Below the pieces are notes generated by a model. That model was not told where the DNA came from and made no database searches. It saw only the letters and a list, made by a program, of their open reading frames with translations. From positions 10,551,525 to 10,615,524 of the forward strand of contig OZ316896.1 in the NCBI GenBank assembly GCA_973895155.1: 64,000 bases of DNA, read 5' to 3'. Below, piece after piece: positions 2,092 to 36,527 of this stretch (positions are counted from its first letter, which is position 1; each line of letters begins with the position of its first letter). The translations under genes and the position numbers were made by a program. The stretch is from Marsupella aquatica. Taxonomy: Eukaryota; Plantae; Marchantiophyta.

Positions 2092-4471
2092 CACTAGAAG
2101 AAACTGGCCCATTTTGAGACCCTGCCTTTAGTGACTCCAATGAGACTGGTCAGAATTTGTGACTCCTAGATTGTTGGTGTCATTTTAGTTACAAGTTGTG
2201 GACTTAGTTCAGGGGTATTCCTGGGGAAGTCATTTGTATAACTATTGGGGAAGTTGTAACTTTAACTAAGTTAAGCCAACAAGAATGAAGTTATATAAGT
2301 GACTCATGAGTGAAGTTATTGCACCAGGCAAGGATGGTGAAACCTGGTTTTGTGTATAACGCATGGTTTTGTGCACTATAACGCATGGTTTTTCAGTTTG
2401 TCAAGACCTTATTTTAACACCTACTTTTATTCAATAAGTCCATGCAATTCTTTGTCTTACTATTTTTGACAAGCAATGCATGCTTCAGATTCAATAATCC
2501 AACCTAAATGTGACACATATTCACAATATGATCAGGTCTTCAATACCTTACCCAAAAAAGAATACTTTTCATAATGGTCATGTTTAGTCATACCTGACCA
2601 TTTGGCCCCGTTTTTCACCAAAGGGGGTGGTTCAAAGTTGTTCCTAGCCACTCACCCCACATATAACGTGTGCCTAAGTCCTTTGGTTCTCACAAAGGAA
2701 AATCAAGCTTAGGAAAATCATAGACTTTTGTGAAGTTGGGGGCAAAATACAAGGAGTACTCGGGGGCAAAATACAGGGTGGAACCGGTTTTGCCCCCCCC
2801 CCCCCCAACAACAGTCGGCCCTTCTCACCACGACTTAGGGTGAGGGGAGCCTGGCTGAGCATTGCCCAGCCCCGATCTGTGTTGCTCGATTCCCCCCCCC
2901 CGCCAATGTTGCGCTGCATTGTTGCGTTGTTGAGCTCCATTGCTGCGAAGAGTTTTATGGTCTAGGTGACATCGCTGCTAAGCTCAATTCGCGAGCTGCC
3001 TAGGTCCATTGCCAAATGCTGCTTCCTTCAATCGTCTGCTGCCTGCTGTTACAATCGCCTGCTCAATCGTGCACCCAATCGCCTAGAGCTCATTCACCTG
3101 AAGTTCAATCGACTGCTGCTCAAACTGCTATTGCTGCAATTGCGAGCTACTCAATCTGTTGTTGCTGCAATCGCAAGCTGCTCGATCACGAGCTACCTAG
3201 CTTCATTGTGAGTTGCCTCCCTGTTTTCCTTGTTCTCCCTCTTGCTTTCAGTAATTGTATTGAGGTCTTTCGATCAGTTTCAGAGGGGAGGCATTGTCTC
3301 TGCAAGTTGTTAGTGAGCTAAGTAGGTACTGTGTGTAGGTTTAGGCATCGGTAACTGAGTCATCGGTCACTGAGGCATCGGTCACTGAGGCATTGGTCTT
3401 TAAGTTGTGGTCACTGATGAGCTGTTTGAGTTGCGATGTCTGAAAATTGATTTATTTGAGCTGAATGCTAGCATTGAGGTGCCTAGCTCCACATCAATCA
3501 GTGCTTAATGAGAGTGAGGGCTACGGTGGGGGAGATGATTTGTGGCTTCCTGTGGTGCGTCCCATGGCTCCCTAAACCCAAGAAACCCCCCAGCTCAAGC
3601 CGATTCCCGCAGGTTTCGTGCTTGGCGAGGCCGTTTCCGCGGCTTAGCGGCATGGGATGCTGCTAACCTTCTACTACTACTATTAACATTTTACACACAT
3701 ATACTGGACAGATCCTTCATCGGGTCATGAGATACGTAGCCGGCCTAATATAGGCCTTCCCCTGTCTTCCCCTGTCTTCCCCTCCGTCTTGTTAGGTATG
3801 TTTGGATTCCGCCGCCGGAATGATCCCCAATAGGCTTGGTTAAGCCGCTAAGACCTCTCTCAGCTCGACACATCCAACTCTCACTCCCCTGCTTACTTTC
3901 CTTCCTTCTGTTGATGTGGGCACTCTTCACACAAGTTAATGCGACACACAAATAGCAAAATGACTCATTCTGACTGAGTCATACCATGCACTTGCCATAC
4001 AAACAGTACATCTCATACACAAGTTCTGCGAACTAAGCCGTGAGGCCAACTCTATTCAGCTCTTAGGCATGAGGAAACATGAATATATACAAGGGTCACT
4101 GTATGACTAACCGAGAGCTTCTCGTACTACTTGATCCCAGCCCGGCTGGTGCAAACTAAAAACTTGCTAAAGAAGAGGCCCTGAGCTCCCCGCTGCCCAG
4201 GTACTTATCCTGGTAGTGGATCCGCCATTCTTTGCATCGTAAGCCTAATCTACTTAACAGTAATCTACTTGCCCGAATCTACCTATGTACAGCAAGGCAG
4301 GAGCACAAGTGTTGCTCCTACCAGTGGGACCACAATCCCACTAAGCTAAGTGTCAGGGCCGCTCCTGGTTCTGATCCTAATCCTAAACGTGGAGATCCGC
4401 GCTCGCCCTGCCCACTCACGCCTCCTCCCTCCACGTCCGCCCTCCCTAAAAGGAACGGCGCCCTTGCACCA

Positions 4472-7400
4472 TCACGACACCGGTGGTGGATCCTTAATGG
4501 ACGCCCCCAACGCTTCCTCCTCAGCCACTGCCGTTGGCCCGCCTACTGACAGATTACCTGCCCTTGACTGAGTCAACTCTCCATCGGCCTGACTGGGTCC
4601 ACCTTCGGCTTCAGCCTCGACACCGGCCTCGGCAATACCCACGGCTTCGGCCTCAGCCACTCCCACGGCTTCGGCCTCCCCTTCCCCTAGGGTAGTTGGA
4701 TCCTTAGCCGTGACCCTGTCTAGGGTCGGTGCTGGGTCTACCTCCTTGATCACCACGGCCTGTGAAGTCGTATTACTCCTTGACCCTGAAGGTTTCCGCT
4801 TCTTCTTCGTTGGTGGCTCGGCAGCTGGTCCCTTCCCCTTCCCACTTACTTCTGGCACTGGTGCAGTTGGCGCGGCTTGTCCTTCGGCAATTACCACCCC
4901 TGGTAACTGGTTTGTCCCAACGGGAGATGGACCTGCTGCAGCTAAGCATTTAAATACTGCGGCTTGTTTCTTCAGCCGCTCTGTTTGGTTGTCGGCCCGC
5001 CGCTGTAGGTTCTCCATCTTCCTCGTGATTTCCTCCAACTCCTCTTGGGTTTCATCCAGGTCCTTACGTGCCCCCTCCAGCTCGTTTTTGGCCTCCTCCT
5101 GCTCCCTGTGGGCTTCCTCCAATTCCTTCTTCAAGGTAGCCCTCTCCTCCTGGGTTGCTCTTAGCTCCTTGTCGAGCTCTGCAATGATGACAGACTCCAT
5201 CTGGTTCATCTTGGCGTAAGTCTGTTCGAGCATCTCGTCCTTCTCCCTTAGGTCGGCCTTGAAGCTGGCCGTCAGGGACGCAAGCTCCTGCTGCAGCGCC
5301 ATAATCCCTTGATAGGATTTCCCTAACTCGACCTCCTTCTGCTCAAGGGCTCCGCGGATTTTCTCGAGCTCCCCTTTCAACGCCCATTCCTTTCTTTGGG
5401 TCTCCGCCATGGCCCGGCTGTTGGCTGTTATGTGGGCCTCCTCTGTATTCTTCAGCTCTTGCTTCCACTTCTCCCTCTCTTTGATCATGTCGGCCAACTC
5501 TTCCTGCGTCTGAGTCAATTTATCCTTGATATTCTGATTATCAGCCTGCGCGGTGTCCAACTGCCCCTGCATGATGTTCAACTCATGTCGTTTAATCCGC
5601 AGTTCATCTTGGGCTTTCTTGGCCGCCCTTAGATCTTCAATCTCAGCTTCCATCCTCCTAAGCCGCCGAATGACCTCGTCCTTCTTGCTTCTCTCTAAAG
5701 CCACCGCTTCTTCTAATTGGTGCTTCTCCAACTGCTCCCTATGGAAAAAGGGTCCTATCTCCAACTCCTCTCCAAAGATGCCGAGCGCAAGTTCCCCACA
5801 CATCTCACCATACTCCATGGCTCTATTCTTAGCGTAGGTGGAGTAAGTAGAAGTGATCGGCATCGCCCATCGTGGCCTCTGCTCCCAAGCCGTCCTGCGG
5901 ATCTCTTCAATCGTGGCTAGAGGTTTGCTTCCTTTTTCGGCTAGCCGCCTGATGTCCTCCGGCCAATCTCCTCCTGGTAAATCCTTTTCCTTAGCCAGGG
6001 CGGCCTCTTCCTCCTGCTTGATTCGCTCCTGAAATTCCTGCACCGTCTGTTTTATGCCGTCGAAGCTCGGGGGAGCAACATCTGGTGGGGGAGACTCAGG
6101 GCTACTCTGCTGGTTGGGGTCCCCTCGCACTACCCTTGGAAGTGTGGGGACAAACCGGCCATAGGTCCTTACTCCTGGAACGTGATGGTCCGACCCATAG
6201 CCGGAATTATCATGGCTGCAGTCCTCCACTGCCTCCTCTACCTCTTGGACGTCCGGCTTCTCCCTCTCCTCTTCGTCGGTAGGAGCTTCAGGCAATTCTG
6301 CCTCAGATTCGGAGCTTGAGGTTCCCACGTACATTCGAACACCTGGCTTGGATTCCGGCCTGATTCTCTCCTTGTCTCCAGCAAAGGGATTTTCTCTTGT
6401 GAGCCGGTGTAGGCCTACCTCTGTAGTAGTGTCCTGCATTGTTGCCGTTGCCGTTGTTGTTGCCGATGCCGATTTCTTTTCTTTCTCCAGTAGTTTCAGC
6501 AGACTCTGCATGCCTGGTTGCTGCATCGGCAAGTCTTCCTTCCTGGGCCTAAACACCTGCTCGATCGTAGGACTAACAGGTGGTTGAGGCTTCTCAGCCA
6601 ACGGCCTCGGCGTTGGAGCTTCCTCCGGTGCCCTTACCTGCAGGGGAAGTACCGGGGCAAAAGTCTGACCTCTGGCATACCGGCACAACAGCGGCATGTG
6701 ATAGCCAAGCCACGACACGCTCCCCATGCCGATTACCTGCTGCTCCTCCTTTAAGATCTTCTTCAATTGGTTGAGGAGGTACCCGTTGTAGTCCCGGCTT
6801 GGGTCTGGCCTTTCTGCCAGATAGACCTGTGCCTTGCCGATCTCTGCCCTCGGCAAGTTACAATGCATGGTCACCCGTAAGAAGTCGATCATCTCTCCTA
6901 TGTGCGGGTTGGTGCAGGTGTTCCGGAAGAAGCCATTCTTCGTTGATGGCCCGGGGAACAACCGGAACTCCTTATCAGGCAGGGTCTTCCTGGTATCAAC
7001 TTTGGTCTTATTGCCTATCGGCAAGCCAAACACTTCGGCAATTACCTTGGGAGTAAGATAGAAATCCTTCCCATATATCCTCGTGCAATTGGTCTCGGGT
7101 TCCCATGACCCCACGAATTCTAATAGGTCTGACTCCGGTACCTCCGGCTTCAGCCATGGTAATCTTACAAAGGCCTCCAAGCCAGATCCGGCCATGAAGC
7201 CTTGGTACTTCTTGGTCTGCATGGCCGTAAAGCATGCATCCTCCTCCCGTGCAAAATGTAGTTGCACCTCCACCGGTAGGGTTGCCGCCCAGCCCTTCCA
7301 GGTGTCATCCCTGGTTGGAATGGCCTTGATGGGATCGACCTCCTCCTCTTCGGCTTCTCCCTGCCTCCTGCTCTGCTGCTCGGCTGGCCTCTTTGGTGCC

Positions 7401-7489
7401 GCCGACCTCGCTCTTTTTGTCGGGGTGGCTTCATCGTTGACGGCCCCCTTCCTCTTCATCTCTGCTGCCGTGGAGGTTTCTCCTAGCAC
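4472..7489 (-). CDS. LTR-encoded ORF-B, ~1000 aa: N-terminal PMD/plant-transposon-protein-like segment, acidic linker, long coiled coil
   Basis: Uninterrupted 1005-codon ORF (first ATG 7459). LLEFVGSWEPET..IYGKDFYLTPKVIAEVFGLP resembles the plant mobile domain / Athila-type accessory motif. About 250 aa of E/K/L heptads; basic NLS-like stretches KRK and KKKRK. Confidence 0.8.
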   Translation of the reverse strand: MLGETSTAAEMKRKGAVNDEATPTKRARSAAPKRPAEQQSRRQGEAEEEEVDPIKAIPTRDDTWKGWAATLPVEVQLHFAREEDACFTAMQTKKYQGFMAGSGLEAFVRLPWLKPEVPESDLLEFVGSWEPETNCTRIYGKDFYLTPKVIAEVFGLPIGNKTKVDTRKTLPDKEFRLFPGPSTKNGFFRNTCTNPHIGEMIDFLRVTMHCNLPRAEIGKAQVYLAERPDPSRDYNGYLLNQLKKILKEEQQVIGMGSVSWLGYHMPLLCRYARGQTFAPVLPLQVRAPEEAPTPRPLAEKPQPPVSPTIEQVFRPRKEDLPMQQPGMQSLLKLLEKEKKSASATTTATATMQDTTTEVGLHRLTRENPFAGDKERIRPESKPGVRMYVGTSSSESEAELPEAPTDEEEREKPDVQEVEEAVEDCSHDNSGYGSDHHVPGVRTYGRFVPTLPRVVRGDPNQQSSPESPPPDVAPPSFDGIKQTVQEFQERIKQEEEAALAKEKDLPGGDWPEDIRRLAEKGSKPLATIEEIRRTAWEQRPRWAMPITSTYSTYAKNRAMEYGEMCGELALGIFGEELEIGPFFHREQLEKHQLEEAVALERSKKDEVIRRLRRMEAEIEDLRAAKKAQDELRIKRHELNIMQGQLDTAQADNQNIKDKLTQTQEELADMIKEREKWKQELKNTEEAHITANSRAMAETQRKEWALKGELEKIRGALEQKEVELGKSYQGIMALQQELASLTASFKADLREKDEMLEQTYAKMNQMESVIIAELDKELRATQEERATLKKELEEAHREQEEAKNELEGARKDLDETQEELEEITRKMENLQRRADNQTERLKKQAAVFKCLAAAGPSPVGTNQLPGVVIAEGQAAPTAPVPEVSGKGKGPAAEPPTKKKRKPSGSRSNTTSQAVVIKEVDPAPTLDRVTAKDPTTLGEGEAEAVGVAEAEAVGIAEAGVEAEAEGGPSQADGELTQSRAGNLSVGGPTAVAEEEALGASIKDPPPVS

Positions 7490-8114
7490 CGTTGCCTGGG
7501 TCCACCTTTCCGTGCTTTATACCCTTTAATTCCCAGTGTATGTCGTTGCAGTTCTTGATGGCCTCTCGGATGCCGACGACGCTGTCTTTGCAAAACAGAA
7601 GATCGTCGAGTTGATTGGAAGTAGGCGTCCACAAGAACTCGTCCTTGATGAGTTCGCCTCCTAAGAAAGCCGTCTTGTGCAGCTCCCACAATCGAGCAAG
7701 CTCCTGCCGTTCTCGAGCTGCCCTTTCTGACTCCTCGTCCTCGTAAGTCTTGATGTACTCAGTTGCCCGTTCGAACAGGCATCCCCAGAAATGTGCCGCT
7801 TGATTGACGTTGCTCATACCCTCCTTAGGTCGATCGTCGGTATCAATTCTCTCCCCGAGTGCTTGCCTAAGCAGCTGACAGTAGTTGGCCTCCCGTAGTC
7901 GTCTGCCTAGTTCGTGCTCGCAAATGAGCCACCATCTCCTGCAAGCGCTCCTTACCCCTCTCCTCTGCCGGTCCTTCTTCCCGTTGATCCTTCCTAGCCG
8001 CCGACGCTTAACGCGCCCTAACCCTAATCGGGTTTTCACCCTCTGCCTTACCTCCGGCCTCTGCCCGGGTTCCATGGTTGCCCCTAATTGTTTATATTTT
8101 CCTTGTTTTGTCAC
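7431..8114 (-). CDS. LTR-encoded ORF-A, ~214-227 aa, Arg-rich N-terminus, unknown function
   Basis: Open in both LTR copies (also 18295-18978); first ATG 8075; overlaps the start of ORF-B. Confidence 0.65.
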   Translation of the reverse strand: MTKQGKYKQLGATMEPGQRPEVRQRVKTRLGLGRVKRRRLGRINGKKDRQRRGVRSACRRWWLICEHELGRRLREANYCQLLRQALGERIDTDDRPKEGMSNVNQAAHFWGCLFERATEYIKTYEDEESERAARERQELARLWELHKTAFLGGELIKDEFLWTPTSNQLDDLLFCKDSVVGIREAIKNCNDIHWELKGIKHGKVDPGNGARRNLHGSRDEEEGGRQR

Positions 8115-8178
8115 TATACTAAGGTGTTCCTAGGGTGCCTTCCTGCTTTACCCACTTAACCGGCCGAGTGATTCCTGT

Positions 8179-11040
8179 CTAGGCATCACATAGCTCCCCA
8201 CTTAATTGTGAAGCGTCCTCGCGAACAACTTCATCTTTGTCCATATAGTATTTCTTGAGGCGGTCATAATGGATGCGAACTGGATATACCTCTCCCGTAA
8301 TGTTGGCCAATTGTACGGAGCCATTGGGGAACATCATGGTTACTCTAAAGGGTCCTAACCAGCGAGTGTAAAGCTTTCCTGGAAACCTACTATACCTACT
8401 GTCATAAAGTAGCACAAGATCACCGGTATGAATACTAACTACTTTTAACCTTTTATCATACTGCTGCTTCATGATATTCTGTCTATATTCTACTCTCTCG
8501 GCTGAAATCATTCTCGCTTCCTCTAAAGCTTCTAACCTATATTCTCGCTCCTTTAGGCTCTCCTCCGCTGAGGCTCTTTCCTCAATTGTAACTTGAAATG
8601 TCGGTATCTCAAGTTGCATGGGTACCAGGGCTTCTTGTCCAAAGGTTAAGAAGAAGGGTGTATGACCGGTAGTGGATTTATAGGCAAGATTGTAAGCAAA
8701 AACAGCAGCAAACAATTTATCATCCCAATCGAGTTTGTTCTGAGCTACTGTCTTGTTCAATATCTTTCCTATGATTCCGTTTGCTCGTTCTGTCAACCCG
8801 TTTGCCTTTGGATGGTAGGGAGTAGTAGGCCTATGTTTAACTAAATACTGCTCATTTAAACGACTAATTATATCATTCAAAAAATGGGTTCCTCTATCAC
8901 TAACTAATTCTAGGGGTGCTCCATACCTGGTGAAGATCTGCTCATACATGAATCTAGCCGTAGTAATTGCATCATCCTTCATTGTTGGTCTGGCCTCTAC
9001 CCATTTAGTTGCATAATCCGTAGCCAGGATTATGTACTTGTTCCGTCGAGGGTGGGTCAGTGGTTTCAGAGGTCCAATGTAATCAATACCCCACTTCTCG
9101 AATGGTGCCAGAGGTAGAATAGGGTGCAGTGGATGCCTGGTGGACGCCCTTGGTCCTCCCACTCGTTGACAAGGATCGCATTGTTTGATAAACTGATAGA
9201 CATCTTTGTGCAAGGTGGGCCACCAGTAACCGGCATTTAATATCTTCTTAGACGTGGTTACTGGGGCAAAATGTCCTCCGGCCTTCTCTCCATGCATGGC
9301 CCGTAGGACTCGTTTTACCTCTCTCTTTTCCAAACACCTTTGAATCGTGCCGTTGATTCCATGCTTGTGCAGTATGCCTTTAATGCACTGATATTGTCTG
9401 ACCTTCCGCACAAAGACTGCGGCTTGCTCTCGGCTTAATCCTGGCTGTAATCTGGAAGTGCTGAGAAATTGTAAAATCTCAGGGTACCATGTACCAGCTA
9501 TTTCCACAACGAATAGCTCCTCGTCGGGGAATCGATCATCGATGCAATCCGTGGCAGGTTTTCCTGTGATCCTTGAAAAGAAGTCGGCATTGGCATGTAA
9601 CTTTCCCGGCTTGATCCTCAGCTCATAGTCAAACTCCTGTAATAGCAAAATCCATCTTGCTACTCTGCCTGTAAGGTCCGGCTTATTGACTAGGTACTTC
9701 AAACTTTCATGATCAGTATGAAAGATTACCTTGTACCCTAGTAAATAATGCCTAAACTTTTTACAAGAATAAATGACTCCTAATGCTTCTCTTTCCGTGG
9801 TAGAGTAGTTCCGTTTGGCATCGGCAAGCTGACGGCTTGCGAAGTATATGGGATGGTCCCTTCCTTTCTCATCCAACTGACTTAGTACTGAGCCAATACA
9901 GAAGCCCGAGACATCTACAAAAACATGAAAATCTTTGTTCCAGTCCGGTGCTATCATGACTGGGGCCTCTACTAACATCTGCTTCAATTCTACCACCGCT
10001 GTGACTCGTTCAGGTGTGGGTTCGAAGTCTGCTCCTGCCTTGAGCATATTGGTTAATGGTAAAGCCAGCTTGGCAAAATCCTTGATGAACCGGCGATAGT
10101 AACCAATGCATCCCAAGAAGGATCTTACATCCTTTATGTTCTTAGGTTGCATGATATCTAGCCATACTGCTAGCTTACCTTTGTCAATCTCAATGCCCTT
10201 CCTTGATACCTTGTGACCTAGTAGCACCCCCTCGGTTACTGCAAAAAAACATTTATCTGGGTGTAACTTGAGACCCACCTCTCTACATCTCATGAAGGTT
10301 TTCCTGAGGTATTTAGCATGTTTCGATGCCTTCCCGAATACTGCAAAGTCATCAATGAAGATTTCCATGAACTTTCTCAAGTAATCATGAAAAATGTTCA
10401 CCATTAATCGTTGGAACATAGCTGGTGCGTTGCAGAGTCCAAACGGCATACGATTGAAGACATAGATCCCCCATTCCGTGATGAAGGCCGTCTTGATTTG
10501 GTCTTCTTGCCGAATCCTGATTTGGTTATAACCAGAGTATCCATCCATGAATGAATATAGTTCATGACTGGCTACCATGTCTAGTACCATATCAGTAAAC
10601 GGTAAAGGAAAATGGTCTTTTAATGTTGCTTCATTCAGCTTCCTGTAATCCTGACAAACCCGGATCTTGGGTTTACCATCAGGTCCAGCTTTCTTGGGAA
10701 CTATCACAATTGGAGACACCCAGTCTGAATGCAGGACTGGAGTGATGAATCCAGCTTCCACTAGTTTGTCGATTTCTGTTTTGACCAGCAGGGAATACTT
10801 CGGGTTCATCCTTCGAATTGGTTGTCGAAATGATTTGGCTCCTAACATGAGATCAATTCGATGTTCCCCTAGTGTTGGATCTACTCCCTTTAGATCTTGG
10901 TGACTCCATGCAAACACATCCTGAAATTCAATCAATAAGTCACTGATCTCTTTCTCAAGCTCAGGTGCTAGGTTTCTCCCTAAGTTCAGTTCTCTTCCCT
11001 CTCCTAAGTCGAGCTTCCGATATTGCCGTGCTTGGATCAT
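8179..11040 (-). CDS. pol: Pol: reverse transcriptase, RNase H, integrase
   Basis: RVCQDYRKLN, MDGYSGYNQI, MPFGLCNAP, FIDDF; RNase H DVSG/EREAL/TDH; integrase H..H..CDPC, WGIDYIG, SDRGTHF, NGLTER, WLGPF. The ORF runs through the PPT and stops 12 nt inside the LTR. Confidence 0.97.
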   Translation of the reverse strand: MIQARQYRKLDLGEGRELNLGRNLAPELEKEISDLLIEFQDVFAWSHQDLKGVDPTLGEHRIDLMLGAKSFRQPIRRMNPKYSLLVKTEIDKLVEAGFITPVLHSDWVSPIVIVPKKAGPDGKPKIRVCQDYRKLNEATLKDHFPLPFTDMVLDMVASHELYSFMDGYSGYNQIRIRQEDQIKTAFITEWGIYVFNRMPFGLCNAPAMFQRLMVNIFHDYLRKFMEIFIDDFAVFGKASKHAKYLRKTFMRCREVGLKLHPDKCFFAVTEGVLLGHKVSRKGIEIDKGKLAVWLDIMQPKNIKDVRSFLGCIGYYRRFIKDFAKLALPLTNMLKAGADFEPTPERVTAVVELKQMLVEAPVMIAPDWNKDFHVFVDVSGFCIGSVLSQLDEKGRDHPIYFASRQLADAKRNYSTTEREALGVIYSCKKFRHYLLGYKVIFHTDHESLKYLVNKPDLTGRVARWILLLQEFDYELRIKPGKLHANADFFSRITGKPATDCIDDRFPDEELFVVEIAGTWYPEILQFLSTSRLQPGLSREQAAVFVRKVRQYQCIKGILHKHGINGTIQRCLEKREVKRVLRAMHGEKAGGHFAPVTTSKKILNAGYWWPTLHKDVYQFIKQCDPCQRVGGPRASTRHPLHPILPLAPFEKWGIDYIGPLKPLTHPRRNKYIILATDYATKWVEARPTMKDDAITTARFMYEQIFTRYGAPLELVSDRGTHFLNDIISRLNEQYLVKHRPTTPYHPKANGLTERANGIIGKILNKTVAQNKLDWDDKLFAAVFAYNLAYKSTTGHTPFFLTFGQEALVPMQLEIPTFQVTIEERASAEESLKEREYRLEALEEARMISAERVEYRQNIMKQQYDKRLKVVSIHTGDLVLLYDSRYSRFPGKLYTRWLGPFRVTMMFPNGSVQLANITGEVYPVRIHYDRLKKYYMDKDEVVREDASQLSGELCDA
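8191..8205 (-). promoter_or_regulatory. Polypurine tract
   Basis: Minus strand TTAAGTGGGGAGCTA directly precedes the TG of the 3' LTR. Confidence 0.8.
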
Positions 11041-11046
11041 ATTAAT

Positions 11047-11445
11047 CTACTTCTTCAAATTCGGGTCCAGTTCGGCTTCCAGTCTCTCTAATCTCATACC
11101 TCCATAAACTGGGATCTCGGCTGGACTAGCCGAGTCGGTCCCTTCCTTGGTGTCCATAGATTGTCCCCTTACCGGTCTATTCGGTTTTGAATTAGTGGTC
11201 GGCTCCCCTTCCTGCCTTGGCTCTAGATCGTGTCTGTCCATCTCATCCACCTCTTGCTCCTGAGAGTTAGGCCGCTGTGCTCTCTCGGCTTCTAATAGGG
11301 CCTCAATTTGTTCTGCCCTCGTAATCGGCTTGTATGCCGATCCCTTGGTATTTAATTCCTTGCCGATGATCGATGGCATTGTGGACCCCGTCGGCTCTGC
11401 CACAACGCCTGCAGAAAATCCACTGTCCCTGCTACTGCTCCCCAC
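11047..11445 (-). CDS. PR-RT linker in the pol frame, separated from pol by a single TAG
   Basis: Same frame as 8179-11040 (405-nt offset) and -1 relative to gag. Reads LKK*INMIQ across TAG 11047-11049. Confidence 0.7.
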   Translation of the reverse strand: MGSSSRDSGFSAGVVAEPTGSTMPSIIGKELNTKGSAYKPITRAEQIEALLEAERAQRPNSQEQEVDEMDRHDLEPRQEGEPTTNSKPNRPVRGQSMDTKEGTDSASPAEIPVYGGMRLERLEAELDPNLKK

Positions 11446-14390: not shown

Positions 14391-14410
14391 GCCCCCTCCA
14401 TCTAGCGCCA
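14391..14410 (-). promoter_or_regulatory. Primer binding site
   Basis: Minus strand TGGCGCTAGATGGAGGGGGC, after a TTTT spacer following the 5' LTR; not a tRNA-Met type PBS. Confidence 0.8.
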
Positions 14411-15335
14411 AAAATGTGGTGCGTCCCATGGCTCCCTAAACCCAAGAAACCCCCCAACTCAAGCCGATTCCCGCAGGTTTCGTGCTTGGTGAGGCCGTTT
14501 CCGCGGCTTAGCGGCATGGGACGCTGCTAACCTTCTACTACTACTATTAACATTTTACACACATATACTGGACAGATCCTTCATCGGGTCATGAGATACG
14601 TAGCCGGCCTAATATAGGCCTTCCCCTGTCTTCCCCTGTCTTCCCCTCCGTCTTGTTAGGTATGTTTGGATTCCGCCGCCGGAATGATCCCCAATAGGCT
14701 TGGTTAAGCCGCTAAGACCTCTCTCAGCTCGACACATCCAACTCTCACTCCCCTGCTTACTTTCCTTCCTTCTGTTGATGTGGGCACTCTTCACACAAGT
14801 TAATGCGACACACAAATAGCAAAATGACTCATTCTGACTGAGTCATACCATGCACTTGCCATACAAACAGTACATCTCATACACAAGTTCTGTGAACTAA
14901 GCCGTGAGGCCAACTCTATTCAGCTCTTAGGCATGAGGAAACATGAATATATACAAGGGTCACTGTATGACTAACCGAGAGCTTCTCGTACTACTTGATC
15001 CCAGCCCGGCTGGTGCAAACTAAAAACTTGCTAAAGAAGAGGCCCTGAGCTCCCCGCTGCCCAGGTACTTATCCTGGTAGTGGATCCGCCATTCTTTGCA
15101 TCGTAAGCCTAATCTACTTAACAGTAATCTACTTGCCCGAATCTACCTATGTACAGCAAGGCAGGAGCACAAGTGTTGCTCCTACCAGTGGGACCACAAT
15201 CCCACTAAGCTAAGTGTCAGGACCGCTCCTGGTTCTGATCCTAATCCTAAACGTGGAGATCCGCGCCCGCCCTGCCCACTCACGCCTCCTCCCTCCACGT
15301 CCGCCCTCCCTAAAAGGAACGGCGCCCTTGCACCA

Positions 15336-18300
15336 TCACGACACCGGTGGTGGATCCTTAATGGACGCCCCCAACGCTTCCTCCTCAGCCACTGCCGTTG
15401 GCCCGCCTACTGACAGATTACCTGCCCTTGACTGAGTCAACTCTCCATCGGCCTGACTGGGTCCACCTTCGGCTTCAGCCTCGACACCGGCCTCGGCAAT
15501 ACCCACGGCTTCGGCCTCAGCCACTCCCATGGCTTCGGCCTCCCCTTCCCCTAGGGTAGTTGGATCCTTAGCCGTGACCCTGTCTAGGGTCGGTGCTGGG
15601 TCTACCTCCTTGATCACCACGGCCTGTGAAGTCGTATTACTCCTTGACCCTGAAGGTTTCCGCTTCTTCTTCGTTGGTGGCTCGGCAGCTGGTCCCTTCC
15701 CCTTCCCACTTACTTCTGGCACTGGTGCAGTTGGCGCGGCTTGTCCTTCGGCAATTACCACCCCTGGTAACTGGTTTGTCCCAACGGGAGATGGACCTGC
15801 TGCAGCTAAGCATTTAAATACTGCGGCTTGTTTCTTCAGCCGCTCTGTTTGGTTGTCGGCCCGCCGCTGTAGGTTCTCCATCTTCCTCGTGATTTCCTCC
15901 AACTCCTCTTGGGTTTCATCCAGGTCCTTACGTGCCCCCTCCAGCTCGTTTTTGGCCTCCTCCTGCTCCCTGTGGGCTTCCTCCAATTCCTTCTTCAAGG
16001 TAGCCCTCTCCTCCTGGGTTGCTCTTAGCTCCTTGTCAAGCTCTGCAATGATGACAGACTCCATCTGGTTCATCTTGGCGTAAGTCTGTTCGAGCATCTC
16101 GTCCTTCTCCCTTAGGTCGGCCTTGAAGCTGGCCGTCAGGGACGCAAGCTCCTGCTGCAGCGCCATAATCCCTTGATAGGATTTCCCTAACTCGACCTCC
16201 TTCTGCTCAAGGGCTCCGCGGATTTTCTCGAGCTCCCCTTTCAACGCCCATTCCTTTCTTTGGGTCTCCGCCATGGCCCGGCTATTGGCTGTTATGTGGG
16301 CCTCCTCTGTATTCTTCAGCTCTTGCTTCCACTTCTCCCTCTCTTTGATCATGTCGGCCAACTCTTCCTGCGTCTGAGTCAATTTATCCTTGATATTCTG
16401 ATTATCAGCCTGCGCGGTGTCCAACTGCCCCTGCATGATGTTCAACTCATGTCGTTTAATCCGCAGTTCATCTTGGGCTTTCTTGGCCGCCCTTAGATCT
16501 TCAATCTCGGCTTCCATCCTCCTAAGCTGCCGAATGACCTCGTCCTTCTTGCTTCTCTCTAAAGCCACCGCTTCTTCTAATTGGTGCTTCTCCAACTGCT
16601 CCCTATGGAAAAAGGGTCCTATCTCCAACTCCTCTCCAAAGATGCCGAGCGCAAGTTCCCCACACATCTCACCATACTCCATGGCTCTATTCTTAGCGTA
16701 GGTGGAGTAAGTAGAAGTGATCGGCATCGCCCATCGTGGCCTCTGCTCCCAAGCCGTCCTGCGGATCTCTTCAATCGTGGCTAGAGGTTTGCTTCCTTTT
16801 TCGGCTAGCCGCCTGATGTCCTCCGGCCAATCTCCTCCTGGTAAATCCTTTTCCTTAGCCAGGGCGGCCTCTTCCTCCTGCTTGATTCGCTCCTGAAATT
16901 CCTGCACCGTCTGTTTTATGCCGTCGAAGCTTGGGGGAGCAACATCTGGTGGGGGAGACTCAGGGCTACTCTACTGGTTGGGGTCCCCTCGCACTACCCT
17001 TGGAAGTGTGGGGACAAACCGGCCACAGGTCCTTACTCCTGGAACGTGATGGTCCGACCCATAGCCGGAATTATCATGGCTGCAGTCCTCCACTGCCTCC
17101 TCTACCTCTTGGACGTCCGGCTTCTCCCTCTCCTCTTCGTCGGTAGGAGCTTCAGGCAATTCTGCCTCAGATTCGGAGCTTGAGGTTCCCACGTACATTC
17201 GAACACCTGGCTTGGATTCCGGCCTGATTCTCTCCTTGTCTCCAGCAAAGGGGTTTTCTCTTGTGAGCCGGTGTAGGCCTACCTCTGTAGTAGTGTCCTG
17301 CATTGTTGTCGTTGCCGTTGTTGTTGCCGATGCCGATTTCTTTTCTTTCTCCAGTAGTTTCAGCAGACTCTGCATGCCTGGTTGCTGCATCGGCAAGTCT
17401 TCCTTCCTGGGCCTAAACACCTGCTCGATCGTAGGACTAACAGGTGGTTGAGGCTTCTTAGCCAACGGCCTCGGCGTTGGAGCTTCCTCCGGTGCCCTTA
17501 CCTGCAGGGGAAGTACCGGGGCAAAAGTCTGACCTCTGGCATACCGGCACAACAGCGGCATGTGATAGCCAAGCCGCGACACGCTCCCCATGCCGATTAC
17601 CTGCTGCTCCTCCTTTAAGATCTTCTTCAATTGGTTGAGGAGGTACCCGTTGTAGTCCCGGCTTGGGTCTGGCCTTTCTGCCAGATAGACCTGTGCCTTG
17701 CCGATCTCTGCCCTCGGCAAGTTACAATGCATGGTCACCCGTAAGAAGTCGATCATCTCTCCTATGTGCGGGTTGGTGCAGGTGTTCCGGAAGAAGCCAT
17801 TCTTCGTTGATGGCCCGGGGAACAACCGGAACTCCTTGTCAGGCAGGGTCTTCCTGGTATCAACTTTGGTCTTATTGCCTATCGGCAAGCCAAACACTTC
17901 GGCAATTACCTTGGGAGTAAGATAGAAATCCTTCCCATATATCCTCGTGCAATTGGTCTCGGGTTCCCATGACCCCACGAATTCTAATAGGTCTGACTCC
18001 GGTACCTCCGGCTTCAGCCATGGTAATCTTACAAAGGCCTCCAAGCCAGATCCGACCATGAAGCCTTGGTACTTCTTGGTCTGCATGGCCGTAAAGCATG
18101 CATCCTCCTCCCGTGCAAAATGTAGTTGCACCTCCACCAGTAGGGTTGCCGCCCAGCCCTTCCAGGTGTCATCCCTGGTTGGAATGGCCTTGATGGGATC
18201 GACCTCCTCCTCTTCGGCTTCTCCCTGCCTCCTGCTCTGCTGCTCGGCTGGCCTCTTTGGTGCCGCCGACCTCGTTCTTTTTGCCGGGGTGGCTTCATCG

Positions 18301-18353
18301 TTGACGGCCCCCTTCCTCTTCATCTCTGCTGCCGTGGAGGTTTCTCCTAGCAC
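15336..18353 (-). pseudogene. 5'-LTR copy of ORF-B with one nonsense change
   Basis: CAG>TAG at 16971-16973 splits it into 460- and 523-aa pieces. Confidence 0.85.
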
Positions 18354-18978
18354 CGTTGCCTGGGTCCACCTTTCCGTGCTTTATACCCTTTAATTCCCAG
18401 TGTATGTCGTTGCAGTTCTTGATGGCCTCTCGGATGCCGACGATGCTGTCTTTGCAAAACAGAAGATCATCGAGTTGATTGGAAGTAGGCGTCCACAGGA
18501 ACTCGTCCTTGATGAGTTCGCCTCCTAAGAAAGCCGTCTTGTGCAGCTCCCACAATCGAGCGAGCTCCTGCCGTTCTCGAGCTGCCCTTTCTGACTCCTC
18601 GTCCTCGTAAGTCTTGATGTACTCAGTTGCCCGTTCGAATAGGCATCCCCAGAAATGTGCCGCTTGATTGACGTTGCTCATACCCTCCTTAGGTCGATCG
18701 TCGGTATCAATTCTCTCCCCGAGTGCTTGCCTAAGCAGCTGACAGTAGTTGGCCTCCCGTAGTCGTCTGCCTAGTTCGTGCTCGCAAATGAGCCACCATC
18801 TCCTGCAAGCGCTCCTTACCCCTCTCCTCTGCCGGTCCTTCTTCCCGTTGATCCTTCCTAGCCGCCGACGCTTAACGCGCCCTAACCCTAATCGGGTTTT
18901 CACCCTCAGCCTTACCTCCGGCCTCTGCCCGGGTTCCATGGTTGCCCCTAATTGTTTAGATTTTCCTTGTTTTGTCAC
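18295..18978 (-). CDS. 5'-LTR copy of ORF-A
   Basis: Near-identical to 7431-8114. Confidence 0.65.
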   Translation of the reverse strand: MTKQGKSKQLGATMEPGQRPEVRLRVKTRLGLGRVKRRRLGRINGKKDRQRRGVRSACRRWWLICEHELGRRLREANYCQLLRQALGERIDTDDRPKEGMSNVNQAAHFWGCLFERATEYIKTYEDEESERAARERQELARLWELHKTAFLGGELIKDEFLWTPTSNQLDDLLFCKDSIVGIREAIKNCNDIHWELKGIKHGKVDPGNGARRNLHGSRDEEEGGRQR

Positions 18979-21059
18979 TATACTAAGGTGTTCCTAGGGT
19001 GCCTTCCTGCTTTACCCACTTAACCGCCCGAGTGATTCCTGTCTAGGCATCACACTTCCAATGTAAACCGTTCAGGTATGATTTATGTGACATTGTGTAC
19101 AGTGATAGTGGCTCTGCTTATTGACTCCTTCACATTCTTCCTGCAAGTTATTTAAGCTGAACTGATCTGAACAATAGAGATCAAGCATGCTTAGCTTAAC
19201 TAAACTGTGGTTGAATAGCGACAGGGCGCTGCCAGGCAAGAGCTTGGGTTGCGACTTGCAACTAGGAGCCAAGACAAGCTGCTGCTTTAGAACTGGACCG
19301 AGAGCTGGACCTGCAACCTGGGGGGGAGCTACGATCATGCGGAGCTGAGTCAATGCATGCATGAGGTAATCACGTGTTGCGTCCACATTCTTGCTCCAAT
19401 CATATATGTGTCTATTCACTAATGTCTTCAGAATAAAGTCAGGGCTTATACTAGTGCCATATATGATTGCAACGTAACCTCTCTCTCACTCTCACAACAT
19501 GTCATGGCAGAAGTGGGCTTTCACAAAATTTGCAAGAATTGACTATATTAAGTGGAAGGAAGAGACACTTTGTCCATGCTGCAGTTGCATCCACATAGAC
19601 TCTAACTATGTCGGGATTGGATCCATGAAGCCCTGCATTGCCAATTCCATGTAGCCACATTGTAATGTAGAGTTTGATCTATGGTCACTGAGAGCTGAAA
19701 CTTGCTGATAGCTGTAGTCGTTGCGACCTTCTGAGAACAGGTGTTGTGCCATCAACGATGACTGCTCTTTGCTGGATTTGGTGAGGCGGGAGGTTCAGAA
19801 CGTGTTGTGGACAAGGGGCTGAGTGACTTTTGTCCAGCTGCGCTGAGCTGACTGGGTATGCTGAAGGTTTGATAAATCCAGAAGAGGTCAGTATGATCCC
19901 TAACCAATGTGAATTGAATATACGGAATGGGATATTTCCTCTAACTTTCAATGTTGCATTGTATGACATTAACCACCATGGGCCATTCTGACGTATTGAG
20001 TGTCTGAGTAATTCCTAGCTTCTAGTTGTGATGTCCGCATGAGCCCAAGTGAGGTCCAACTTGGAGCCTTAATAATATTGTTGTTGTGGGGCCAATACAG
20101 GAGGTTCCGTCTAGGACTTGTTGTACTGAAGCGAGCTCCTGCTCTGAGGTGCAACGTGAAGCTGAGCAATTTACATCTAGCTCAGCTCATGTATTGAAGT
20201 GAGCTCCTGCTTGGAGGTTCAGAGACAAGGTTTTGTGGAGCTAGGTGACTTTTGTCCAGCTGCGCTCAACTGAGTGACTGAGTATCTTGAACCTGGAATC
20301 TTGAGTGAAGATAGGCCAGCAATATTGCTAACTTCTTTTTTGCATACTATTATGGTTCCCAGAGAGGTCTGCTTATGAAAGACACATTTGAATTGGCTAC
20401 AACAAGGAATAGAAGAAGCCATTGCCTGGGTCTGTTGGAGTCTGTAAGGCAGAATAGGTAAATTTGGGCTCAAATCAGCCCTTCTCATCATAGAAGATTT
20501 CTTCTACTATAGATTCACATGACTTCCTCACCTCACTCCTGTCTGAACTCCTGAACTAGATGAAGTCCTGTCTGAATCTGAAGTTCAGATCGTCAATCTC
20601 AAATGGCAAGTTCTGAACTCCTGTCTGTTGAGCCTAATTATTTGTTTATTGCTGTAGTAACATGCATGGCCAATTGGTTTCTCTTCATGTAAAGGGAAGT
20701 TTCTGAAACTTACAAATTGAAATGGTGGTTTAAATTTTGTTAAGTGTTGAGAAATTTGCATTCACACTAACTAAATTCTTGTGTGATGCAGATATCTTTG
20801 CTATTGACAACCTTGAAAAATCATTTGATCACAGAAGTTTTCAGAACAAACACGGCAGAATTCAGGTTGAGGATTGGACATTGAGGCTCAAGACATTGAG
20901 GTAATAAACTGGTTGTGGTCCGGGTCACAATGTTAGCAAATGATGCTTCTTCAGGGGAACTGCCCATGTGTAGTTTGTTTTGCCATTTGAAGGGGGTCGT
21001 TCACTATATGCAATAGTAATAACTTTCTACATTTGTCTGTTTAATGTTCAGTCTTGGTA

Positions 21060-21732
21060 ATGGCTAGGGAGAAGAGGAAAGCCATAAAGAATGCCACTGA
21101 AACAAAAAAGTGAAAGCATAATGAGGCAATTGAGCAGGGACTTCATTGCTTGAAGATTGAACGTTGGTCAGACATTGAGAAGCGTCAGTGTAGTCCCCAA
21201 TTGTGTGCGATATGTGATTTCCGTGGAGATCTGGCCATGTGTGATGGGTCTTGCCATTGTCATTTTCACTATGTCAGCAGAATTGGTGACATTGTAGGCA
21301 GGTGTCCTGTAGTGGTTATTGCACCAGGCAAGGATGGTGAACCCTGGTTTTGTGTAGATTGCAAGAATAAGATACATAAGTGTTTCAAGTGTGGCGTGGT
21401 CTCTCCAGCGGTCAGACAGTGCCCTCAGCCATATTGTGTTCGTTTTTATTGTCATGAGTGCTTGCCACTTGATGTGGAATCTTGCCCCATGCATGCATGT
21501 ACAGCATGCAAGCAAGATCACAAAGACCCTCATATGGCAAAGGCAATTCAATGCTTGAGATGTCCCACCACCTGGCATGAGGGTTGCTTAAGAGAGAGTC
21601 AACGTCATGGTTTTGCAAGAACCCTGGCAGTACACTGCGCACCGGCAGCAGCAATGGATGATTTACTGCCTGAGGCATCCCATTGACCCTGTACTTGGCA
21701 CACCTGCCCATGATCATATCTCCTGGCTTTGA
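21060..21732 (+). pseudogene. EDM2/NSD-type tandem PHD finger protein (CACTA cargo)
   Basis: CAICDFRGDLAMCDGSCHCHFH..WFCVDCKNKIHKCFKCG..CPMHACTAC..CLRCPTTWHEGCL, then after a frameshift IYCLRHPIDPVLGTPAHDHI. One in-frame TGA at 21111. Confidence 0.85.
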
Positions 21733-22039
21733 TGTGGTGGAGTTTACCATGCGTTCACTTTAGGGGTTAGCCAAGTTTTGTCTTAGGCAGGATACCTGCA
21801 CATTTTAAACTAGTCAGGATTCCAAACTTGCCTATTGTATTATGGTTATTCCCACTGTGTACACGAATATCATGCATGTTTATGGATGTCATGGTGAATG
21901 TGAATGTGGCGATACCCAAGTTTGTTGTGTAGCTGTGCCAATCCTTGTATGAATTGCATATTTAGGCATTCTCATGGATCTGCAGGTGATATCAGGGGTG
22001 TCCACTTTTTCCTTCACACTGTCAAATGGCTGCCTACAC

Positions 22040-22954
22040 ATGGCTACCACCAGTAGGACACTGAAGAGGCTTGCCTCAGACCTTCCTCCTACACTGTTTG
22101 CTGGAGTTAGAGCAATTTTTGTTCCTCATACTAGGGGAGAGGACACGAATAGATGGGAGTTCATGAAAAGACAATTGGTTGAGAATGGAGGGATAGTGTT
22201 GAAACAAATCAGTAGAGACACCACACACATCATCGCTTATGATTGGTGTGATGTGATGCAGAAGTGGTTTTGGAGCACCATCAACTTTTATAGAGAGTCC
22301 TATGGTCTTAAGGTTGTTGATGCCTCTTGGATGTATGACTCTCTAGAATATAGCACCCTTCAGGACCCAACAGAGTATGGTATATGGTTGAACAAATGGG
22401 CCACCAAAGACATTTTTGCAGTTCAAAGCACAATATGATGATGCTTCACAGGGAACTAGGCAAGAGCTCTTAGAGCATCCTATGCCTATCATAAACCCCC
22501 ATGTGCGGGTCATATTTAGGGGGGTTAAGGTCATGTTTGTGGGTGTCGGGATTCCACTGGGAAGGTTGAGATGTTTCAAGCACAAAATTCTGCACAGGCA
22601 GGGTGAGGTGCATGAACGCCTCATAGATTCTACCACTCATGTGGTCACCCTATCCTATTCCAGACTTTGTCGTATGGTTGGAAAGACTTTAGTTTGGATG
22701 ATGGTTAATAGGGGCCTGCAAGTGGTTTCACCTGTATGGATGAAAGAGTCACTAATAGAGGCATTGTACTTGATGAAGCAGCCTTTGATCTGAATGAGGT
22801 GTGGCCTCAGAAGCCTAAGTACAAAAGACGTAAGAGCTGGGATGGAGGTGATGAACCATTAGTTAATGATGTACTCAGGGAGACAACCACAGAGTGGGAA
22901 ACCACGAGCGATGAGGACGAATACTCTTCTGACACTGGCAAATATAGTGATTAG
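22040..22954 (+). pseudogene. Tandem BRCT domain protein (CACTA cargo)
   Basis: Two repeats: LFAGV..NGG..TTHIIA..VVDASWMYDSL and IFRGVKVMFVGVG..RL..TTHVVT..VVSPVWMKESL; two frameshifts. Confidence 0.8.
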
Positions 22955-23449
22955 TTTATCTGATGAAGAGCCATGACAGTGTTAGTCATTTAGACAATGA
23001 ATACTTGTTGAGTGGTGAACTTGTTTCCTTCAAATTCCATCTGTAATAAAAACATTCATTGTCCTCTCATCATGTCATTCCACAATGAAATCATCTCTTT
23101 GCTTTGGATTCTGTTCAAATTCTGTTCAGTGTTGTGTGTCGTGTTGGCTTTTCCTTAACCAAGGATGTGGCTTTGTCCTCATGTCTACATACAAGGTTGC
23201 AAGGCCCCTACGGAGACAGTATGTACTGAAGGGGGTGTTTACAGAGCTGGGCAAATGTCCTTTGCTGTTTGTATTGTTGACAACTTCAACTCAGGTACAT
23301 GACCAATTCACATGACAACAATGCACTTCTTCTTTTGACCATTATTTAGTAGGCTACTTTGTTACCCTTTTCACCTATTGTTCATCACTACAGAGTTTGC
23401 AGTCTGTTACAATACACCCTGGTCACCACCCTCCCCAGACCCAACGCAA

Positions 23450-23989
23450 TGCACAGCCATTGCCTTTACATCATCCCATAAGGGTTGCACGCCATGACAA
23501 TAAGCTTTGGCAGCGTGAAACATTAAGAAATAGACTTGCAGGAGCCAGTAGGATGAGATGTCCTTGTGCAATCTGCCAAGGGACTCGTAGCACGATCCTC
23601 AGTGAGGTTTGGCAGCATATTGCAGTGAATGGGCAAGATCCACGACATCAAGTTTGGAATGATCTAGCAGAGGAAGATTCTTCTGATGAGGAGTGGAGGC
23701 AGATTTTGAGGCTGCCAATGTTGTGCGACGGTCGGAGGTGGATCTGCCAAGTGATTTGGACAATGCTATTGCTGGTCTATGTGGGATCACTGACCACCAA
23801 CAGGATGTGTGTCGGGCAGAGCCACATGACGAACGCATTCGTGTGGAACAGATGGTGCAAGACATCTTCCAGAACTTGGATGCATTTCATGATGGGTTGG
23901 ACAATGAAGACAACACTGATGCTGATGCAAGTGTGCCCCTAGTTGACAATCCTCTAGATGAGTTTGAGATAGGGCAAGATGTTGAGCAT
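23450..23989 (+). pseudogene. CACTA transposase N-terminal part (transposase-associated Cys/His domain)
   Basis: RCPCAICQG..VWQHIAVNG..VW. Joins in frame (GQDVEH-DWMFGSL) to 33353 when the insertion is removed. Confidence 0.8.
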
Positions 23990-27600: not shown

Positions 27601-29119
27601 TTCTGTCTGCAACTACTCCTAATAGTTCTTGCAATTTTCTCTTCCTAGTACTCAAGGCACACACTTTCTGAGTCTGTAGTGCCAACAACCATCTCTCCTT
27701 TCTTCTCTTGATATTCAGGCCATGCATCTGTGTACTCAACTCTGGACGTGTCAAATAATGTGCATTCAAACCACCCTCTGTGCTTCTTTCCCCTCTCTTT
27801 GCTAAAGCCTCCGCTTCCCTGTGCACCCATCCACGAAAGTCATCTTCTAGTGTTATAGCATGACATCTACTGCAAGTTAGGTTCAGAAAACCCCCACCAT
27901 ACAAGGACAACCTACAACAATCTTTATGCCTAAATAATCCTTCTATATGTACAGTAGAATTTGTGTTAGGATTGTAGACATGAACAGAGATTGTAGCATC
28001 CATATTCCAGACATGTCCTCCCTGCTGATCATGCAAGATACCCTTCACAGCATACTTCACATTCTTCCACTCTACATATTCATCCCATATTCCCCAACAG
28101 AGCAAACTTAAGCCCACATCAATGTCTCTAGACCCACTTGTGCCAGAGCTGCTGCTTGCATTGGAAGCATCCTCCTTGAAGAATTTTAAGATTGAATTCT
28201 ATGAAGGATGTTGATCCCTCTCATCTGGCTTCCTTGGTCTTCCCCTCTTTCCAGATCTCAATGCAAGTTCAGCAGTATTCTCTCTGGCTTCAACTACATC
28301 CAGGTGACCTCGACTGACCAAGTGTGTCCTCAAGTTGTGATCCAAAGTCCTTTTCTTACAAACCAAATCCATGATTGCCCCACAGACTTTGCAACGAACC
28401 TTATAAAGGAACCACTTGTTTGCATTATTGGCTGGACCAGGCACAAGGGGCACATGAAATAACTCATCATCACCTCCACACTCAACATTCAGATTCTAGA
28501 CTATCTCTAGGCCAGTTGCTATGGCACCCTCATAATCAAACTCAAGCTTCTGTGCAAGATCAGAGGGCTTCAACCCAGTCATAGCAATACCCCTTCTCCT
28601 ACAGTAATTGTCTTTGTGTTTAGCAAAGGCAAGGTGCTTGGTCTTAAAATTGCTGAACAAATTAGCAATTGACTTCTTATCTTGGGAATTATCTGCCCTC
28701 CCATAGACCACTCTACACTCAAGACACTCCAGATGGCCTCTCACATCCTGTCCTTCATCCCATGTTCGAACTCTCCAATTATGATTTTTATAACCATTCT
28801 TCTGAGTCCACTTCTCCAGTCTTGTAAATTCATCATTCCAGACTTTGACAGCCACCTTAGACATCAGAATAGACTCAAAAGAAGCTCTCACAGGGGGAGC
28901 TTCTTGAAGCTGTTCACCCTGGGAAGAGTCCACTGCAACCGATTGGGTGACAGCAGCGGAAACTGATGGGAACCCTGTCCTAGCAAAAGGTAGGGATCCA
29001 ATTTGTTCAATGACAACAACTTTCCCATCCAATTCAGACAACTCAGTCATTTTCTCACTATTGACCTTCATGCGACCAGGAAGCCTATAATCCCAGAAAT
29101 CAAAATCAAAATCAACCAA
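24684..29119 (-). pseudogene. Large (~1400 aa) DDE transposase of P-element-like type with two N-terminal C2H2-like zinc fingers
   Basis: EDETRIK, ASDGD, DQPHSGKKLINPL (DxxH) and LGSDCCEIF occur in P-superfamily order. Fingers CLEC..HLAFAKH and CKVC..HLVSRGH. Two in-frame TAGs (28496, 28199), a poly-A frameshift near 27455 and an intron near 27090-27198. Confidence 0.7.
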
Positions 29120-29509
29120 TTCAGGAATTTAACTTCAAAAATCAGCTAAGGTTTGTCCTTCTTTGAAGGCCAACACAGCTATAGGTTCTTCATCTTTCCC
29201 GTCAGTCACCCAATCCCTTTTTTTGTGCAATAGCTTCACAAACTGGGTAGCCATTTCAATCAACTGGTTCAAGTAAGTTAAAGCATCAAGGGTTCTAAAT
29301 ACAATCACAGACACATATTGAACCTGCCATACATAATGAACCTGCCATCCAGCACAGTAAACAACACAATATGAATCAAATTAGAGACTGCTCAAAAAAC
29401 CTTTTCATAACCACATTTAAAGACCAACACAAACAATTCTTGTTGGTTATTGTTCACATGTGATTAGCCCAGTGAAGAAGTTTGCTTTGTACTATCAATT
29501 TCACAAACT

Positions 29510-36300: not shown

Positions 36301-36527
36301 CCTCAGGTTGGCGTGTAGTCTATCATAAACAAGCTAGGCAACGTCGGATGGAAGGATCTAAACTTGAGTTCCATTTACATTCTCATAGTGCCTTTGATCG
36401 TCGACGTGCACACCAAGTGTCTGTTGTTCATGATAGCAGGGACCTCATTCCTGTGACAAGGGTCGAGGCATTTGCTGAAGGGGATCAACTTATTGATCCA
36501 GATGCTGATAGTGAACCTGTGCCTTGA
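33353..36527 (+). pseudogene. CACTA Tnp2-family transposase (Transposase_21, DUF4218- and DUF4216-like regions), with introns, stops and frameshifts
   Basis: PLYPGS, IHACPDGHILF, RNVRLGLSLDG, YNLPPW, DYPA, HNIDVMHIEKNV, MKSHDYH, FFDVMTHLLVH, WLYPLERYM, EPFVFPSQVEQAFF. Confidence 0.93.

Follow-up and report, generated by a model that had tools for sequence, protein, structure and literature searches.

The 64,000-nt window analysed here (Marsupella aquatica, contig OZ316896.1, positions 10,551,525 to 10,615,524) contains a young Ty3/gypsy retrotransposon whose giant long terminal repeats (LTRs) consist mostly of an accessory coding sequence. This feature is real and conserved, and a role of the encoded protein on chromatin is plausible but unproven. 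Our overall reading, a tentative one that falls just short of being probable, is that a young Ty3 non-chromovirus carries in its LTR one long accessory gene, likely in U3 and likely with its own promoter, whose product is predicted to be nuclear, to form a coiled coil and likely to act on host chromatin in the manner of VANC or PMD factors.

Architecture of the element

Comparison of the window with itself to locate direct repeats reveals a pair of 4,640 bp each (3551–8190 and 14415–19054). The two copies are 99.33% identical, with 31 substitutions and no gaps, and the identity drops off sharply at both edges. The element is 15,504 bp long and lies on the minus strand, so that the copy at 3551–8190 is the 3' LTR and that at 14415–19054 the 5' LTR (Table 1). 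A preliminary description of the window had defined the LTRs by a target-site duplication (TSD), TG...CA ends, a primer-binding site (PBS) and a polypurine tract (PPT). All four are present, and the LTRs, then put at 4.64 kb and 60% of the element, measure 4,640 bp and 59.9%. The PBS may correspond to plant tRNA-Asn.

The 31 LTR differences comprise 28 transitions, and 24 of the 31 fall at CG or CHG sites, as expected if the repeats are two real, methylated copies and not an assembly duplication. The Kimura two-parameter distance is 0.0067. The plant substitution rate is near 1e-8 per site per year, which would make the insertion a few hundred thousand years old and the element young.

The span from the ATG at 8075 to the stop at 4472 covers 77.7% of the LTR, in agreement with the earlier figure of ~78%. 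The 921 bp that follow the stop of open reading frame (ORF) B match the non-coding end of ~920 bp described before. The pol stop (8179–8181) falls within the LTR, 103 bases ahead of ATG 8075, inside the earlier range of 65–105 nt. ORF-B, previously given as ~1000 aa, has 995 codons; the ~227 aa given for ORF-A is approximate (214 codons from the first ATG, 232 counted stop to stop). ORF-B had been placed in each LTR. It is open in the 3' LTR, and the 5' LTR copy is interrupted by a premature stop at codon 451 (16971–16973).

The pol frame of the window element contains a stop at 11047–11049 that is missing from nearly all family contigs. In addition, gag and pol overlap by ~94 bases in different frames and none of the listed indel rows falls there, so that a programmed frameshift or splice is possible.

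Table 1 Features of the element and of Tat-type loci
Feature	Position	Strand	Basis or remark
TSD, 5 bp, left copy	3546..3550	none	identical 5 bases at 19055..19059
3' LTR, 4,640 bp, TG...CA	3551..8190	-	self-comparison; edges recur in other copies
Non-coding LTR end, 921 bp after ORF-B stop	3551..4471	-	likely accessory-gene 3' untranslated region (UTR), main promoter, R and U5
TATA-like box behind short purine-rich tandem repeat	3746..3752	-	candidate genomic-RNA promoter
ORF-B, 995 codons from ATG	4472..7459	-	C-terminal part of accessory gene
E/K/Q/R-rich, almost proline-free coiled-coil-like tract, ORF-B ~575-835	4955..5737	-	composition; weak ATG16 match, E 0.002
Conserved globular domain, ORF-B ~45-270	6650..7327	-	18 relatives; weak likeness to VANC21
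ORF-A, 214 codons from first ATG	7431..8075	-	second ATG, 7817, matches first Met of fused relatives; likely N-terminal part of accessory gene
Four bases missing from many family copies	7516..7519	-	equal the A/B frame offset; contain the stop opening frame B; overlap TATA-like word
TATA-like word near LTR start, altered in 5' LTR	8090..8096	-	candidate accessory-gene promoter
pol frame: reverse transcriptase (RT), RNase H, integrase; no additional RNase H	8179..11445	-	Pfam, ORF reading
PPT, within last pol codons, abutting 3' LTR	8194..8203	-	sequence
gag (capsid, zinc knuckle) and protease-like segment, 998 codons	11352..14348	-	Pfam; protease by eye
PBS	14393..14410	-	starts TGG, 4 bases inward of 5' LTR
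5' LTR, 4,640 bp; ORF-B copy with premature stop	14415..19054	-	self-comparison, ORF reading
TSD, 5 bp, right copy	19055..19059	none	self-comparison
Tat-type loci (TatI/TatII arrangement)	L028, L030, L042, L051, L061, L066, L067, L077	sense ORF	short-read contigs
Tat-type LTR/ORF stretches	L030:3360-10733, L077:11429-18603, L024:3521-6453		contigs

The coding LTR in the family

Among 13 sequencing runs listed, six contain 43–73% of the sampled window words, one of them possibly being the window's own source. Family copies are examined as contigs in seven distinct runs (X labels), where summed contig depth does not equal copy number. In four of four runs the median depth of the 12 LTR bins exceeds that of the nine gag bins (4.2-, 3.4-, 2.9- and 3.3-fold), and in X1 and X2 every LTR bin is deeper than every gag bin. 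Intact elements alone would give an LTR:gag ratio of 2, so solo LTRs are likely. Contig joints connect the PBS side to the LTR end (14414 to 3553), and the LTR ends 3550/3551 and 8190 to positions within other copies. Contigs of X6 and X8 exit the LTR exactly at 8190 into other DNA. Short LTRs in other copies, the outcome against which the preliminary description was to be judged, are not what these data show: depth stays at the LTR level over the 4.64 kb and the edges recur. The giant coding LTR is the normal form for the family.

A probable single gene split by four bases

The two sense ORFs per LTR of the preliminary description hold for this element but not as a design, because A and B form one frame in many copies. 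The four bases at 7516–7519 are missing in 62% of the depth in X1 (15 contigs), 36% in X2 (8), 81% in X3 (1), 100% in X6 (2) and 86% in X8 (1); contigs of X7 and X9 do not reach position 7516. Single contigs bridge the site (X6 record 7 and X8 record 23). Copies without the four bases would read through 1,199 codons from ATG 8075, or 1,113 from ATG 7817. In the A/B overlap, codon usage favours frame B (−0.08) over frame A (−0.40). The A/B split marks one sub-lineage, not the family as a whole.

Three relatives (P0143, P0146 and P0147) have an N-terminal domain of ~110 residues fused ahead of the B domain. ORF-A aligns with this domain end to end from Met87, with matching motif spacing. The alignment is not significant, being equalled by 399, 66 and 197 of 2,000 shuffles in three comparisons, and hidden Markov model and hhalign tests of ORF-A against the domain both fail. 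ORF-A gives no usable match in Atlas, and no relative in a word-indexed search that covered lengths of 117–375 only, in which fused forms could not appear. On balance, ORF-A is likely the N-terminal part of the same gene as ORF-B. In Calypogeia, P0017, P0149, P0150 and P0151 (adjacent accession numbers, one contig) have N-terminal and B-like domains as separate products; P0147 is fused.

The split form is frequent, accounting for 38–64% of depth in X1 and X2, and is found in both LTRs of the window element. Since it has spread, either an element can do without an intact gene in cis or the split form is functional. The extra four bases overlap a TATA-like word ~60 bases before the ORF-B ATG, which may be chance.

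Conservation and selection

Residues ~45–270 of ORF-B were searched among 1.84 billion representatives. Of 20 matches, two (P0006 and P0020) are discarded as repeat proteins; the other 18 keep the domain at 24–52% identity (best 41%, E 7e-48). Named Calypogeia fissa proteins make up four of the ten clusters of these relatives that were looked up. The word-indexed search finds no relative of ORF-B 35–300, and neither the ORF-B domain nor the relatives' N-terminal domain occurs in any of 80 pol-related metagenome loci.

Selection on the LTR ORFs, which the preliminary description proposed to gauge, is assessed here from listed variants. The LTR ORFs contain 45 listed variant sites, taken from the top 40 of 1,119 and the top 40 of 287 rows; without eight that are private to the window 3' LTR, 37 shared variants remain, scored singly. 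Among these listed variants 18 are synonymous against an expected share of 0.31 (p=0.019) and none creates a stop. In the structured parts only, 8 of 18 are synonymous (p=0.16). The corresponding count for gag and pol is 7 of 15. The variant counts weakly support purifying constraint on the LTR ORFs; conservation in distant relatives is the stronger sign of it.

Predicted protein

The accessory protein combines basic K/R motifs and long disordered tracts with ~260 coiled-coil-like residues. No membrane helix such as an env-like protein would have is found, the best 19-residue Kyte-Doolittle mean being 0.46 for ORF-A and 0.98 for ORF-B. In a structural comparison of the ORF-B domain, VANC21 (9lnk_A) ranks first of 48,161 chains, with 179 residues aligned versus at most 88 in all other rows, but the score is below threshold. 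A Foldseek search against PDB and viral libraries gives no match at E≤0.001, and PDB sequence searches (queries A1 and A3) give nothing relevant. No Pfam model matches ORF-B, including those of the PF03078 and PF20167 types, and 0 of 23 alignment members match the PMD or DUF1985 models. The single-sequence fold prediction has a pLDDT of 34. The likeness of the ORF-B domain to VANC21 is weak.

According to two reports, VANC and MAIN/PMD have a fold in common, and coiled-coil oligomers are predicted for both VANC and the Athila ORF (PMC13547354; bioRxiv 2024.09.27.615353). PMD and Transposase_28 domains are frequent in extra ORFs of Ogre and Retand, as far as the available text of PMC6317226 goes. 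Like VANC21 (VANDAL21, DUF1985) and MAIN/MAIL1 (PMD-C), the ORF-B product, an accessory protein of a transposon, combines a globular domain with a coiled coil. Unlike ORF-B, VANC belongs to a DNA transposon of eudicots, and no sequence similarity between them was found. The globular domain is predicted to bind DNA or chromatin, the coiled coil to oligomerise, and the protein to counter silencing of the family. No repeated or over-represented target-like motif stands out in the element.

Candidate promoters and the position of the PPT

Accessory genes in or overlapping U3 are known from retroviruses (MMTV sag, HIV nef and foamy-virus bel); these are much shorter, and no homology is implied. Within the LTR, TATA-like words are found at window positions 8096, 7521 and 3752. 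One at 4089 is set aside, as nearly all family contigs differ at 4088. The box at 3752, 200 bases from the LTR end, is where a genomic-RNA promoter is expected, making it plausible that the accessory ORF lies in U3. The genomic RNA would then begin ~170 bases short of the LTR end and have the order R-U5-gag-pol-U3(accessory gene)-R, and reverse transcription would thus copy the gene into both LTRs. The word at 8096 could drive the gene from ATG 7817. Each LTR, including a solo LTR, would be a self-contained unit (TATA-like word 8096, ATG 8075 or 7817, stop 4472, 3' UTR). Its protein could act in trans, letting split or broken copies such as the window element spread.

The preliminary description explained the coding LTR by a PPT that moved upstream of an accessory cassette, which is unproven. 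The last pol codons and the PPT (8184–8227, ~40 bases) are common to many other families in X7 and X9, where depth is ~8,200 in the 8199–8300 bin and below 30 in every bin within the LTR except one. In addition, 2 of 14 related pol proteins share the EDA motif at their end; a pattern search for a PPT near the pol end gives no match in 14 of the 80 metagenome loci. The shared stretch and motif suggest that the PPT lies at the pol end in this clade anyway. If so, any cassette acquired downstream of pol would end up within the LTR with no need for the PPT to move.

A parallel in Tat-type elements

The design is not unique to the window family. Parts of another long sense ORF occur in 17 of the 80 metagenome loci. 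They belong to a Tat-type family whose RNase H precedes RT, a domain order also described in elements of clubmosses and gymnosperms. The Tat-type loci are short-read contigs and may be collapsed. As in the window element, the LTR starts at a PPT shortly after integrase and holds the whole ORF. The ORF begins 2.0–2.4 kb after the PPT (six loci) and 4.9–5.0 kb before the LTR end (four loci), giving LTRs of ~7 kb. In L030, which matches L028 exactly in its RT, the ORF stays open over 1,236 codons. The 7,175-bp LTR of L077 has both ends in common with the complete, ORF-free 2.9-kb LTR of L024, which fits gain or loss of an ORF inside an LTR. Unlike the window element, the Tat-type loci form a separate RT clade, have an additional RNase H and have an ORF that begins ~2 kb inside the LTR and shows no significant homology with ORF-B (hhalign P 0.15). 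For TatII, Additional file 5 of PMC6317226, as far as available, gives forward extra ORFs at the 5' (23%) and 3' (26%) sides. We infer that such similar rates may reflect an LTR-borne ORF.

Relation to known elements

The LTR pair with TG...CA ends, the TSD, PBS and PPT, and gag, RT, RNase H and integrase in Ty3 order place the element in Ty3/gypsy. No chromodomain is matched in Pfam and pol ends at the PPT, contrary to a chromovirus. There is no additional RNase H domain as in TatI–III, Ogre and Retand, and no PF03078/PF20167 ORF between pol and the 3' LTR as in Athila, the ORF being inside the LTR and without a Pfam match. In an RT tree built without labelled references, the window element groups with Calypogeia (100/99) among Riccia and other rows, with 86/83 on the branch to angiosperm rows. 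The closest named pol is from Calypogeia fissa (68–70% identity), which makes a leafy liverwort the likely host.

Like Athila, Ogre and Retand (PF03078, PF20167, PMD PF10536, Transposase_28 PF04195), the element is a non-chromovirus with a long sense extra ORF downstream of pol. Reviews, in the parts available, place such ORFs in the internal region (PMC7264820; PMC11728184), and plant non-chromoviruses are known to have extra ORFs and LTRs that reach ~5 kb (PMC6317226). The window ORF differs in lying wholly within the LTR with no 3' internal spacer. Phygy and Selgy, from the same portion of PMC6317226, are likewise non-seed-plant non-chromoviruses without additional RNase H and with a polyprotein filling the internal region. 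They have 4-bp TSDs, lengths of 4.4–10 kb and no extra ORFs described there (NCGN TSD and 7.7–10 kb for Phygy), whereas the window element has a 5-bp TSD, 15.5 kb and a large LTR ORF. Retrosat2, RIRE3 and Tekay, as covered in the available text of PMC3485330, share LTRs above 3 kb, an extra ORF (ORF0) and many solo LTRs, but are chromoviruses whose ORF0 is described upstream of gag-pol, apart from the LTR.

Other features of the window

Long interspersed nuclear element fragments (RT, zf-RVT) lie at 874–1782, 38182–40181 and 45774–46484. At 21114–23942, matches to a PHD-like finger (E 9e-5), a BRCT domain (E 8e-7) and a transposase-associated domain (E 2e-5) follow one another, possibly as cargo of a CACTA-like element, and a degraded CACTA-like transposase (DUF4218, DUF4216) is found at 33326–36527. 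The region 24880–29128 contains ORFs of 742, 275 and 210 codons without a significant Pfam match; the longest, judged by eye, may resemble a P-element-like transposase. A 272-bp direct repeat (47756–48027 and 61110–61381; 98% identical, 13.4 kb apart) has neither TG...CA ends nor a TSD, and between its copies lies a gag-like ORF (56115–57416, by eye). A cluster of plus-strand ORF pieces at 50500–54781, whose end weakly matches an N6/N4 DNA methylase (PF01555, E 0.0015), may be a transposon-borne methyltransferase.

Alternative explanations

It is hardly credible that misassembly, or a single recombination event in an element with short LTRs, produced the long repeat. No contig spans the whole element among the runs examined, but the TSD abuts both outer edges, the PPT abuts the inner edge, the scattered LTR differences are of methylation type, and LTR-level depth and recurring edges are seen in other runs; on these grounds we reject it. 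A real LTR could instead hold the gene in R/U5. Transcription would then begin close to where the LTR starts, the genomic RNA would lead with the accessory ORF, as with Ogre ORF1 or Retrosat2 ORF0, and gag-pol would be expressed via splicing or re-initiation. The TATA-like word at LTR position 95 and an observed/expected CpG ratio of 0.8–0.96 over the first 700 bases agree with this, and the 3.2-kb Retrosat2 LTR is described, in the portion available, with U3 ending near base 243 (PMC3485330). Such an arrangement would leave ~120 bases of U3 and put ~4.5 kb and a 3.3-kb ORF ahead of gag, and the box with its upstream purine tandem repeat sits near the other LTR end. We consider it distinctly unlikely.

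It is very unlikely that the ORF is a decaying passenger, once useful and now carried because it is stuck inside the LTR. The abundance of the split sub-lineage, the weak selection, the stop in the 5' LTR copy of ORF-B and the Tat-type LTR variants without their ORF would suit decay. Against it, the frame is open for >1,000 codons, the 37 listed shared variants include no stop and few frameshifts are listed in four runs, the synonymous share resembles that of gag and pol, and the domain is kept in distant relatives. Somewhat unlikely, yet to be taken seriously, is a functional gene that serves particle assembly, RNA transport, nuclear import or cell-to-cell movement (env- or Nef-like) and not chromatin. 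The coiled-coil-like residues and disordered tracts would suit such roles, which have been proposed for plant sense extra ORFs (PMC7264820, in the part available); the lack of a membrane helix does not, and the sole whole-domain structural lead is a DNA-binding protein.

Implications

In the literature searched, which left out most subscription papers, no account of a plant LTR that holds an entire gene was found. What the extra ORFs of plant LTR retrotransposons do is described as an open question in PMC7264820. A wider scenario, which we regard as unlikely and offer as speculation, is that non-seed-plant and gymnosperm-type Ty3 elements have at least twice placed a PMD/VANC-like anti-silencing gene and its promoter inside the LTR. 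Solo-LTR recombination would then leave hundreds of trans-acting counter-defence genes, and the split sub-lineage may have made two genes from one, four bases both splitting the frame and completing a TATA-like box.

Recombination to solo LTRs is the host's main way to delete such elements. An ORF wholly inside the LTR is doubled at each insertion and would survive solo-LTR formation, which changes the outcome of that removal route. LTRs are usually taken as neutral non-coding DNA for dating and annotation, an assumption that fails for such families. If the weak likeness to VANC holds, the family would provide a bryophyte retrotransposon counter-silencing gene whose fused, split and solo forms occur naturally and can be compared.
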